A stretch of 64,000 bases of DNA. Source: Candidatus Heimdallarchaeota archaeon (GTDB taxonomy: Archaea > Asgardarchaeota > Heimdallarchaeia > Hodarchaeales > Hodarchaeaceae). The stretch is from contig RDOB01000002.1 of the NCBI GenBank assembly GCA_011364965.1, positions 32,001 through 96,000 on the forward strand. Reading direction: 5' to 3'. Below, one piece after another: positions 3,336 to 6,961 of this stretch; the first letter of the stretch is position 1, and every line of letters begins with the position of its first letter. The notes beneath the pieces are model-generated. The model was given only the letters and a program-made list of their open reading frames with translations. It had not been told where the DNA came from and searched no databases. The translations under genes were made by a program, and so were the position numbers.

Positions 3336-6197
3336 ATGTCTCGTTTCAACACTAAAACTTTGAGTCAGATTATCAAAACATACAGTAACACTAGAGATTT
3401 CTTAGTAAACAAAGAATCAAATATTTCTGATATAAAGATGAAAGTGCAATGTATTGACTTTTTTATGTCAGTAATTTTTTTGATTTGGAGTATGGAAAAA
3501 AACGGAGTTATAAAGAAATTATTTCTTATGTCACAATTAGAAGAATATGATCCAAATCAAAATTTAATGTCTTTTTCCTGTTTTCTTATAGATTCTATTG
3601 AGAAGCTCTTTTTAATAGCAGATTCATCTAATTATTTTACCAAAGAGGAATTTAATATTCTTAAACAAGCAGATCTTCCATTAAGTTGTTTTTATATATC
3701 CAAATCAAAGAAAACAGATGGGATTTTGTCTCAAAATATAGAAATTAATAATATTGAGGCTCTTCCTTTATTTAACCTTTTGGAGTATTTAGATTCATCA
3801 TTTGGAGCGGTCAATGAATATATTTTGGGAAAAATATTCGAATTCTTGTTATCTAAACAAGATCTGAGGAAAAAATTTGGTATCTACTATACGCCTAAGC
3901 AATTTACGGATTATATGTCAAAATTAACGATTGAAAACTATTTTATAGACCAATTAAATATCAAATTTGATATTAAATTAATAAATTTATCTAATTTCTA
4001 TGAGAAATTAGATCTAGATGTGGCAAATTGGGCAATTCATATATTGAAGACATTAAAAATCTTAGATCTGGCGTTAGGAACTGGTCAGTTCCTCATAAGT
4101 GCTATATACCAGCTTTTAGAGATCCATGAGCACGTCAGGAACTTTTACAGAGACAAAGGCTTAATTGAGGTTTTAATACAAGAACTCGAGCTTCAAAATG
4201 ATACCTTCGTTCTTGAAAATTTCCGAAATATCGAAGATGATAACTTTTTTAAGTGTTTAGTGATTAATAAGCTAATAATCCCTCGCAATTTGTATGGAGT
4301 AGACATTAATTTTATAGCTGTACAAATTGCAAAGATTAGATGCTTAATGATAATGGTAAAATTCTTTTCTTCTTCCAAAATGAGAGTTTCACTACTTGCA
4401 AAGATGAATCACAATTTAAAGCAAGGGAATGCATTATTAGGATATCTAGCTTGTCCCAATGATCGTGAAGTATCATATACTTCCTTAAATCAACTGAATT
4501 TAGATTATATAAGCCAATTTGGTATTGAAAGTATTTCGGAAAATGATTTCCCCTTATTTCACTGGTTTTACGAATTTAAGGATGTATTCATTCAAAATAG
4601 TAAATTTCAAGTGATTCTTACCAATCCTCCTTATATAGGAGAGAGTGGGAATAAAAAATTATTTCGTTTACATGCTAAGGCATTATCTGAATACTATGAA
4701 GGGAAAGCAGATCTTTGGTATTATTTCCTGCATAGAAGTATTAATTTATTGTCAGAAAATGGATATTGCACTTTTATTGCTCCTAATTACTGGATTACAG
4801 CGTCGGGAGCATCGTTATTAAGATCTAGGTTAAGTTCTGAGACAACTTTTGTTCGTTATATTAATTTTAATCAAAATTCTGTCTTTAATTCAGCACAGGG
4901 GGTTCATATTAATATTCTAACCGTTAAGAAAGGCATTAACCCTGAACAAAACTTTGAATGCACGGTTTTTAATGATGTTGTAGAAACTAAGGAATTGATT
5001 AAATCTCTCCCTGATCAACAAACATTCATACTTAAGCAGAATGAGTTACTTTTTAATGGATGGGATCCATATTTTCATTTTATCCCTAGAAAATACAGAA
5101 TTATCCTCGAATTTATTATTTCCAAATCTTATAAATTGAAGAATAAAGGATTCTACGTTAAAGAGGGTATTATTACAGGTATGAATACAATTTCGGGAAG
5201 ACAAATATCCCGCTATAATTTATCCCCCGATAAAAAGGGCATTGGAGTGTTTATATTAGATGTAAATCATCCTGAAGATGAAAAGTATATTCAATCTTTG
5301 TCAGAAATAGAAAAATCGATATTGAAACCATTTTATAAAAATTCGGATATAAAAAGATATTATTCAGCATTCAATACTTCAAGAAAGATTCAGTATCTTA
5401 ACAGAAATACCATAAACATAGTCCATTTACCTAGAGTACGTTATTTTCTTGAACAGTTTAAAGAAATCCTCAATGATTCTCTAGATAATCCCCCCTATTT
5501 AAATCGACCCCGAGATCCATTTATGTTTGTATCTCCCAAGATTATTACTCCCCAAAGAAGTAATCTTAATAGATTTGCTTATAATTCTTTAGATTGGTTT
5601 GCTGGACAGGATGTATATTATATTTTAAATGAAAAAAATGATAAAAATGAACTTAAAACTTTACTACTTATTTTAAATTCCAAACTGGCATATTACTGGT
5701 TTTATTGGATGGGAAAAAGAAAAGGGAAACAACTCGAATTATTCAGTGAACCATTGGGATATTTCCCGATTCCTGATTTGAAAGGTAATGATCTCCATAT
5801 ATTGGCTGATTATCTCTTATTTCTCAATTTACTGCATAATGAATCTGAGTCAGCTCGGATTACTAAATTATTAGCTTTTTTTAACAGGTTAGCGGAGCTG
5901 GCTGTTTTCGAGTTCTATTTTTCAGAATTATGTTATAAAAAGGGATTCAGTGAAACAAAGTATCCATTTTCATTCTATATTCAAGAAAATTTAAAAGAAT
6001 TAAATTTTGATGTTATTCTGGAAAATTTCAAAGAGAACTATGATTCAAATAGGAATTTTATTATTCTCTCAGATCAGATTGAAGTGATAGAAGAAGCTTA
6101 CTATAGTTTAAAGACTAATGAAGATATAAAATCCTCCATAAATAAAATTAATACTTTTCCAATGGTAAAAACAATTGCTAAATTTTCGAGCCTCTAA
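3336..6197 (+). CDS. Eco57I/TaqI-like N6-adenine DNA methyltransferase (gamma class) with C-terminal TRD
   Basis: GIYYTP, ILDLALGTGQFL (motif I), LYGVDIN, FHWFYEF, NPPY (motif IV), ADLWYYF, LILNSKL. Confidence 0.85.
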   Translation: MSRFNTKTLSQIIKTYSNTRDFLVNKESNISDIKMKVQCIDFFMSVIFLIWSMEKNGVIKKLFLMSQLEEYDPNQNLMSFSCFLIDSIEKLFLIADSSNYFTKEEFNILKQADLPLSCFYISKSKKTDGILSQNIEINNIEALPLFNLLEYLDSSFGAVNEYILGKIFEFLLSKQDLRKKFGIYYTPKQFTDYMSKLTIENYFIDQLNIKFDIKLINLSNFYEKLDLDVANWAIHILKTLKILDLALGTGQFLISAIYQLLEIHEHVRNFYRDKGLIEVLIQELELQNDTFVLENFRNIEDDNFFKCLVINKLIIPRNLYGVDINFIAVQIAKIRCLMIMVKFFSSSKMRVSLLAKMNHNLKQGNALLGYLACPNDREVSYTSLNQLNLDYISQFGIESISENDFPLFHWFYEFKDVFIQNSKFQVILTNPPYIGESGNKKLFRLHAKALSEYYEGKADLWYYFLHRSINLLSENGYCTFIAPNYWITASGASLLRSRLSSETTFVRYINFNQNSVFNSAQGVHINILTVKKGINPEQNFECTVFNDVVETKELIKSLPDQQTFILKQNELLFNGWDPYFHFIPRKYRIILEFIISKSYKLKNKGFYVKEGIITGMNTISGRQISRYNLSPDKKGIGVFILDVNHPEDEKYIQSLSEIEKSILKPFYKNSDIKRYYSAFNTSRKIQYLNRNTINIVHLPRVRYFLEQFKEILNDSLDNPPYLNRPRDPFMFVSPKIITPQRSNLNRFAYNSLDWFAGQDVYYILNEKNDKNELKTLLLILNSKLAYYWFYWMGKRKGKQLELFSEPLGYFPIPDLKGNDLHILADYLLFLNLLHNESESARITKLLAFFNRLAELAVFEFYFSELCYKKGFSETKYPFSFYIQENLKELNFDVILENFKENYDSNRNFIILSDQIEVIEEAYYSLKTNEDIKSSINKINTFPMVKTIAKFSSL

Positions 6198-6961
6198 ACA
6201 TCTCTCTTTCCTCCTTTAAGCTGTGAAATATGATCAACTACAGATGTCAAAAATTCTCCAGCTTTCGCTTCTATACGGATATCTGCTAGCATATCTAGAT
6301 CCGTTGGGCCGGAATTAACAATAATAAAAAGTGCACCTGATCTTTGTGCAATAACAGGTATTTCTGCTGCAGGAAAAACACTCAAAGTTGACCCGATTGC
6401 AAGAATAACATCACTTCTAATTGCATGGCTTCTCGCAAGTTCCATTTCTCTTTCAGGCATGGGATCATTGAAGTTGACAACTGAAGAAATTATTCTACCT
6501 GAACAGTACGGACATTTTGGTTGATTCCCCTTTATTTTTTCAGTTCGATACCCTTTCCCATGTTCTTGATCATCCCACCCAATCTCTCCCTTTTGAAGTC
6601 GTTCATCACAATCCATACATTTCATAAGTTCAAAATTACCATGCAATTCAGCTAAAAGTTCTTGCGGGATTCCTGACTTTAAATGGAGATTATCAACATT
6701 TTGGGATATGAGATATTTTAGAATACCCATTTTGTAAAGATCCACGATTGCAAAATGAGCTGTATTTGGTTCGATTAGTTCCATAGGTTGTTTTAGAGGT
6801 TTAGGTTTCAGCCCTTTCTCACGTAATGTCCATACACCTTCTGGTCCTCTATAATCTGGCAATCCTGATTCAGTTGATATGCCAGCTCCCGTAAAGATTA
6901 CAAGATAACTAGAAGAGTTTAAAATTTTAGCAATTTTCTGGATTTCTAAATTCAAATTCAT
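6194..6961 (-). CDS. NAD-dependent protein deacylase, Sir2 family (class IV, SIRT6/7-like)
   Basis: [23 protein letters not shown], ELHGN, CxxC...CxxC Zn site, [10 protein letters not shown], IVN. Confidence 0.92.
   Translation of the reverse strand: [255 protein letters not shown]

Follow-up and report, generated by a model that had tools for sequence, protein, structure and literature searches.

The window analysed here is a stretch of 64,000 nucleotides from Candidatus Heimdallarchaeota archaeon (assembly GCA_011364965.1, contig RDOB01000002.1, positions 32,001 to 96,000). At positions 6194–6961 of its minus strand lies a gene whose product is very probably a Sir2-family enzyme, stand-alone and catalytically competent as an NAD+-dependent protein lysine deacylase, from a mainly Asgard lineage that, among prokaryotes, is most closely related to the eukaryotic sirtuins SIRT6 and SIRT7. 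The protein is best called class IV-like, and not a SIRT6 or SIRT7 ortholog, because it comprises the catalytic core only, its zinc module differs and it branches outside the crown of eukaryotic class IV. Its host belongs to the Asgard archaea of Heimdall/Hodarchaeales type; the HflX GTPase encoded in the window finds its best matches in Hodarchaeales/Heimdall.

A complete sirtuin gene without the helical module

The open reading frame is uninterrupted from ATG to stop, and its product of 255 amino acids (aa) scores 96.2 bits against the Pfam SIR2 profile (PF02146; curated cut-off 24). The gene and its elements are:

6194–6961, minus strand: class IV-like sirtuin gene (P0001), complete, 255 aa; from the open reading frame, Pfam SIR2, the best PDB match (SIRT6) and an AlphaFold2 model.
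6827–6889, minus strand: GAGIS NAD-binding motif (residues 25–29) and class IV-type segment (residues 35–45); from direct reading and alignment with SIRT6.
6641–6700, minus strand: catalytic core Q87-N88-V-D90 ... H107-G-N; from the sequence, alignment with SIRT6 and an alignment of 31 sequences.
6503–6619, minus strand: zinc module C115-x2-C118-x31-C150-x2-C153 with an Asgard-family insert ending in NQPKCPYC; from motif comparison.

The GAGIS residues (G25-A26-G27-I28-S29), Q87-N88-x-D90, H107-G108 and the four zinc cysteines (C115, C118, C150 and C153) are invariant across the 31-sequence alignment. The segment at residues 35–45 stands in place of the flexible cofactor loop and the helical module. 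In the AlphaFold2 model, built with 31 homologs as input (pLDDT 93, pTM 0.90), just a short helix (43–48) is found where the helical module would be. Neither an N-terminal nor a C-terminal extension flanks the core.

The preliminary description of this DNA, made by reading its letters, had singled out a string at residues 35–50, the motif EPNTAH (64–69) 13 residues on and a further string at residues 84–109. All are present, and the SIRT6 strings that it cited for comparison agree with the human SIRT6 chain in the PDB alignment. The missing helical module that it claimed is borne out by the distance from GAGIS to QNVD: 62 residues here and 59–67 in eukaryotic class IV, against 77–90 in class III/U-like relatives that have the module.

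Human SIRT6 is the closest solved sirtuin

In a phmmer search of all PDB sequences, human SIRT6 came top (E 2.6e-49, 171 bits, residues 5–246), followed by Sir2Af2 (E 1.6e-47), Sir2Af1 (about 1e-34), Sir2Tm, SIRT7 (7.8e-31), SIRT3 (about 1e-21) and SIRT2 (about 1e-15). The resemblance to SIRT6 is far above chance. Bit scores in this search, which are the only proxy for separation from classes I and II, fall from 171 for SIRT6 and 110 for SIRT7 to 79 for SIRT3 and 58 for SIRT2. The preliminary description had asked for a structure comparison with SIRT6: with the AlphaFold2 model as query, Foldseek places about 30 SIRT6 chains in the lead (TM-score 0.80–0.83, root-mean-square deviation about 3 Å), with Sir2Af2 (0.67–0.72) and Sir2Tm ranking below. 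In pairwise BLASTP, a fish SIRT6 shares 36% identity with the protein and a horseshoe-crab SIRT7 33%, whereas the second sirtuin encoded in the same genome shares only 32%.

Human SIRT6 (PDB 3pki, 3k35, 8g57) is thus the top match both by sequence and by fold. The two proteins have in common the absence of the helical module, the motif PDFRGPxGVWT, the QNVD-x15-HG spacing, a Cys4 zinc module and, following it, a strand of the (D/S)(T/S)(I/V)(I/V)NF type. They differ in that their identity is limited to 34–36%, that SIRT6 adds an N-terminal extension and a C-terminal nuclear/nucleosome-binding tail, and that its zinc module reads C-x2-C-x21-C-x10-C, whereas that of the archaeal protein reads C-x2-C-x31-C-x2-C.

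The class III/U enzymes Sir2Af2, Sir2Af1, Sir2Tm and CobB share family, chemistry and size with the sirtuin. However, they carry the helical module, with GAGIS and QNVD 77–90 residues apart, a catalytic N-to-H spacing of 17 and a zinc spacer of 21, all of which are foreign to the window's protein. The Sir2Af2 sequence score, close to that of SIRT6, is owed mainly to the Rossmann half. An N-to-H spacing of 19 is common to the sirtuin and SIRT6, whereas the own-genome paralog and LoSIR2a, a sirtuin described previously (10.64898/2026.07.02.735847), have 17.

Phylogenetic placement

Four trees were built from excised sirtuin domains of Asgard archaea, bacteria, eukaryotes and an outgroup: one with FastTree (162 rows), a quick one with IQ-TREE (128 rows) and two careful ones with IQ-TREE (86 and 95 rows), the larger of which adds five named arthropod SIRT7 sequences. 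The IQ-TREE model was LG+C20+F+G4 (PMSF), and supports are given as ultrafast bootstrap/SH-aLRT. The outgroup included P0176 and the own-genome paralog, checked against the PDB as Sir2Af2/Af1/Sir2Tm/SIRT5-like, and E. coli CobB; the trees hold no bona fide class I or class II sirtuin. Many of the eukaryote-like rows are unlabelled metagenomic proteins, called eukaryotic from the clade that they share with named eukaryotes.

A class IV-like superclade is split from all class III/U-like sequences with support of 100/99 in the 86- and 95-row trees, and of 99–100 in the FastTree and quick IQ-TREE analyses. It comprises Asgard sequences, a clade of eukaryotic SIRT6 and SIRT7, and a small number of bacteria. 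The sirtuin sits inside an Asgard clade (99/91) within this superclade. The eukaryotic SIRT6 and SIRT7 sequences are monophyletic (100/99), on a stem of 0.73–0.89, and all Asgard sequences fall outside them.

The preliminary description had taken the protein for a sirtuin of eukaryotic class IV type rather than one resembling CobB, and had named two placements that would speak against this view, namely within class III/U or among bacterial class IV-like sequences far from eukaryotes. Neither is found: the Sir2Af2-type outgroup and E. coli CobB lie across the 100/99 branch, and the Asgard clade shares its superclade with SIRT6 and SIRT7. Together with the first rank of SIRT6 in sequence and fold, the superclade upholds the class assignment. 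Its broader proposal of an archaeal relative of class IV sirtuins stands as far as the superclade is concerned, with the reservations that the sirtuin's own clade is not the one nearest to eukaryotes in the tree, that the extensions and the C-x10-C loop of SIRT6 are missing, and that the idea had already been published.

Two initial assignments were given up. Homologs from Alpha- and Gammaproteobacteria, Acidimicrobiia and some Deltaproteobacteria (35–38% identity), considered as class IV relatives, contain the helical module, and the trees put them on the side of the class III/U-like outgroup. P0354, a Patella vulgata protein named 'sir-2.1' at NCBI and included as a class I reference, sits firmly in the SIRT7 clade, its database name being apparently wrong.

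A zinc insert shared by Asgard sequences

The 31-residue zinc spacer, with its motif (G/N)WD..(H/W)GxGYRT...QPxCPxC, is conserved throughout the Asgard sequences. In eukaryotic class IV proteins the spacer mostly measures 21–29 residues and carries HxTGRxC, and vertebrate SIRT6 has the C-x10-C loop. Among the bacterial class IV-like proteins examined, the Asgard insert was not found in most and is kept in two Asgard-like ones.

Predicted reaction and candidate substrate

The conserved residues and the predicted fold suggest NAD+-dependent lysine deacylation with His107 as the base. Acyl-lysine would attack C1' of NAD+, with departure of nicotinamide; His107 would act as general base, and O-acyl-ADP-ribose and free lysine would be the products. 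The lysine-rich tails of the host's histones are the candidate substrate, possibly along with Alba or other acetylated proteins. The genome has genes for five or six histone-fold proteins and for a single Alba. One of the histone-fold proteins (C9:529816–529995, L103, minus strand) has a lysine-rich N-terminal tail (MAKKKVTKKETAKKAPAKAG...). At C9:550090–550491 we also noted two tandem histone-fold matches in a single open frame of 142 aa, apparently a doublet histone.

A 2026 preprint describes three Lokiarchaeal sirtuins, one of which, LoSIR2b, is reported to deacetylate Asgard histone-tail peptides and a yeast H4K16ac peptide in vitro in an NAD-dependent manner and to be the best of the paralogs on the Asgard histone-tail peptides; enzymes of Loki and Hod origin rescued silencing in yeast (10.64898/2026.07.02.735847). 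LoSIR2b (GNAMCCOK_01652, Lokiarchaeon strain Loki-B35), which we compared through the motifs in the supplement of that work, has the short, core-only architecture of our sirtuin: it lacks the helical module and displays PDYRGPxGVWT, LISQNVD, AELHGN, GxGYRT...NQPxCPxC, ISSVVNF and DPMP. A histone-tail substrate is therefore plausible for the window's sirtuin by analogy, because LoSIR2b acts on histone tails and the host encodes a lysine-rich tailed histone. LoSIR2b comes, however, from a different Asgard lineage, and the LoSIR2b-like sequences P0121 and P0285, 49–50% identical to the sirtuin, belong to another sublineage of the superclade.

Distribution and paralogs

The nearest database relatives, 55–77% identical, come from metagenome-assembled genomes of Loki, Thor, Heimdall, Hod, Odin, Hel, Hermod, Frey, Jord, Borr and Kari archaea. 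At E <= 1e-50, an ortholog is found in 62 of 201 Asgard-phylum genomes, always as one match, and in 35 of the 85 high-quality ones. Its occurrence is patchy by family, from 17/22, 30/40 and 6/6 in some to 0/43 and 0/19 in others. The best scores in a library of 1.8 billion proteins (50% identity clusters) go to a handful of prokaryotic clusters; next in line are SIRT6 orthologs of eukaryotes, namely a lycophyte, a heterolobosean, a fish, amphioxus, and fungi of the glomeromycete and chytrid groups. Searches of phage records with tblastn gave distant matches only (28–34% identity).

The genome has three sirtuin loci: the gene described here, a paralog of 254 aa and a degraded copy. The paralog (C9:608510–609274; L001:1435–2199, plus strand) is intact, includes the helical module and has Sir2Af2 as its top PDB match (201 bits); it resembles LoSIR2a of 10.64898/2026.07.02.735847, which has the module as well. 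The degraded copy (C14:201170–201586, L002, minus strand) contains three TGA stops and one TAA stop within its Pfam match and resembles the class U-like paralog more than the 6194–6961 sirtuin (31% over 139 aa).

Longer architectures occur elsewhere in class IV. Many protist members (P0153, P0304–P0307, P0314 and others) carry an N-terminal ZnF-UBP (PF02148), a ubiquitin-binding zinc finger of the HDAC6 type, and others carry Kelch repeats; neither architecture is seen in the prokaryotic relatives. The class IV-like sirtuins P0135, P0136 and P0298–P0302 (469–537 aa) have an N-terminal extension of about 250 aa without assigned function; two of them, P0135 and P0136, fall in the trees with the Dehalococcoidales/Syntrophaceae clade.

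Genomic neighbourhood

Two genes flank the sirtuin:

3336–6197, plus strand: Eco57I/type IIG-like DNA N6-adenine methyltransferase, 953 aa; from the open reading frame, Pfam and PADLOC.
7077–7373, minus strand: winged-helix (HTH_24) protein, 98 aa, 115 bp upstream of the sirtuin start; from the open reading frame and Pfam.

The methyltransferase gene is convergent with the sirtuin gene, and the 4-bp overlap of their 3' ends, already pointed out in the preliminary description, is indeed there, stop to stop. A congeneric genome (L089) shows the arrangement again: its methyltransferase gene, whose product is 46% identical, converges on the sirtuin gene with a 4-bp overlap as well. At the other Asgard sirtuin loci examined the pairing was not found, and the neighbours there are unrelated. 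A functional link between the two genes was considered and dropped, as they are convergent and the pairing is kept in that congeneric genome alone; the methyltransferase is most likely functionally unrelated to the sirtuin. Its first approximately 230 residues match neither a nuclease nor any other profile. This part of the window is unusually rich in such genes, with four DNA-methyltransferase-like ones in 40 kb (3336–6197, 11051–13423, 22108–24243 and 40630–42789: Eco57I-type twice, N6_N4_Mtase and a tandem methyltransferase).

At the other Asgard loci checked, most of them available with just 1.5 kb of flank, no counterpart of the HTH_24 protein accompanies the sirtuin. A DpdA-like module also lies near the sirtuin. 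Scanned for Rfam families and for tRNAs, the window gave no match.

Alternative explanations

The eukaryotic class IV sirtuins could have been acquired from bacteria or from some unknown prokaryote instead of being inherited vertically from Asgard archaea, which would make the sirtuin's clade a cousin; we consider this a substantial possibility, if somewhat short of an even chance. In the 95-row tree, the closest neighbours of the eukaryotes are two unlabelled metagenomic sequences (95/93), P0129 from a 989-bp contig and P0131 from a 2.7-kb contig where it adjoins an SSF transporter. A Chloroflexota/Myxococcota/Syntrophaceae clade is next toward the eukaryotes (97/95), Hel/Loki-type sequences then follow, and the sirtuin's own Asgard clade branches deeper (96/81). 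As the prokaryotic sublineage nearest to eukaryotes, the careful trees thus tentatively favour the metagenomic pair and the bacterial clade over that of the sirtuin. On the other hand, most prokaryotic sequences of the superclade are Asgard ones, and these are paraphyletic with respect to the bacterial groups, so that transfer from Asgard archaea to bacteria fits. Moreover, the quick IQ-TREE gathers all prokaryotes into one group (support 84), the approximately unbiased test keeps a tree uniting the sirtuin's Asgard clade with eukaryotes as acceptable (ΔlnL 10, p 0.29), and the eukaryotic stem is long, hence its attachment point is uncertain.

As regards function, the N- and C-terminal extensions of SIRT6 and its C-x10-C zinc loop contact the nucleosome. 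Several observations weigh against reading the sirtuin as an Asgard SIRT6/SIRT7 relative at work on chromatin: these extensions and the C-x10-C loop are absent from it; no histone or chromatin gene adjoins it in any locus examined; an ortholog exists in just 2 of 9 other congeneric genomes, and such patchiness speaks against an essential chromatin role; and the place of the LoSIR2b-like sequences in another sublineage means that function is carried over to our protein by inference. The core-only build, the patchy distribution among Asgard genomes and within the genus, and the lack of a conserved chromatin neighbour would suit a general housekeeping deacylase, CobB-like and acting on acetyl-CoA synthetase or other metabolic enzymes, or else a defatty-acylase, its likeness to SIRT6 reflecting ancestry and not a role on chromatin. 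We hold this to be quite possible, though we lean against it; it is a serious rival because the distribution is patchy and the superclade contains bacteria, its Chloroflexota and Myxococcota members lacking histone-based chromatin. Human SIRT6 itself favours long-chain acyl groups on free peptides (title of PDB 3zg6). What argues for the histone-tail reading instead is LoSIR2b, of the same architecture and the best paralog on Asgard histone tails, and the lysine-rich tailed histone of the host. SIRT6 has a mono-ADP-ribosylation side activity, and several Asgard orthologs bear the KEGG-style JGI label 'mono-ADP-ribosyltransferase sirtuin 6'. That the sirtuin mainly modifies proteins in this way, as SIRT6 and class M sirtuins do, rather than deacylating them, appears nevertheless very unlikely: His107 and the full set of deacylase motifs are conserved, the Cys4 zinc module is present and the related LoSIR2b deacetylates peptides. 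Near the sirtuin there is no sign of the class M hallmark, an operon uniting a macrodomain gene with a GcvH-L/LplA2-type partner; the neighbours are the methyltransferase and winged-helix proteins. We give next to no credence to a defence-type SIR2 NADase paired with the adjacent restriction-modification-like methyltransferase. The convergent type IIG-like gene with its 4-bp overlap, kept in one congeneric genome, and the several methyltransferase genes of the window would suit such a system. However, the deacylase histidine and the zinc ribbon are retained, the methyltransferase is missing at the other Asgard loci examined and the convergent genes are therefore not co-transcribed. Thoeris ThsA, DSR, SIR2-HerA and SIR2-pAgo were considered and rejected: PADLOC gave no family match at E <= 0.001, and the protein stands alone. 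Among its longer relatives (bacterial-type proteins extended by about 250 aa at the N-terminus, and eukaryotic ones with ZnF-UBP, Kelch or other domains), no defence fusions were seen.

Implications for class IV sirtuins

In eukaryotes, SIRT6 and SIRT7 are chromatin-bound regulators of genome stability. An Asgard-centred prokaryotic sister lineage of class IV therefore bears on the origin of eukaryotic chromatin regulation.

Both the link between Asgard sirtuins and SIRT6/SIRT7 and the histone-tail activity of a close family member are already known. In an earlier study, Heimdall and Loki sirtuins joined class IV and formed the sister group of SIRT7 from eukaryotes (Grau-Bové et al., bioRxiv 10.1101/2021.11.30.470311). 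As this link dates from 2022 and Asgard enzymes, one with this architecture among them, were assayed in 2026, the sirtuin described here is a further example and not a discovery. That Asgard–SIRT7 sister pair is not recovered in our trees, where SIRT7, sampled in the 95-row tree by the five arthropod sequences and the one mis-named mollusc sequence (P0354), nests in the monophyletic eukaryotic class IV clade (100/99). The present analysis thus makes small additions: the position of SIRT7 within the eukaryotic class IV clade, the bacterial and unlabelled sequences nearest to eukaryotes in the tree, and a zinc insert that is Asgard's own.

More speculatively, this insert could dock onto histone–DNA complexes, standing in for the arginine anchor of the SIRT6 zinc loop; we regard the proposal as rather unlikely. 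If it were true, a minimal sirtuin of this kind would have been targeted to chromatin before eukaryotes arose, and eukaryotic class IV would have emerged from within the Asgard radiation.

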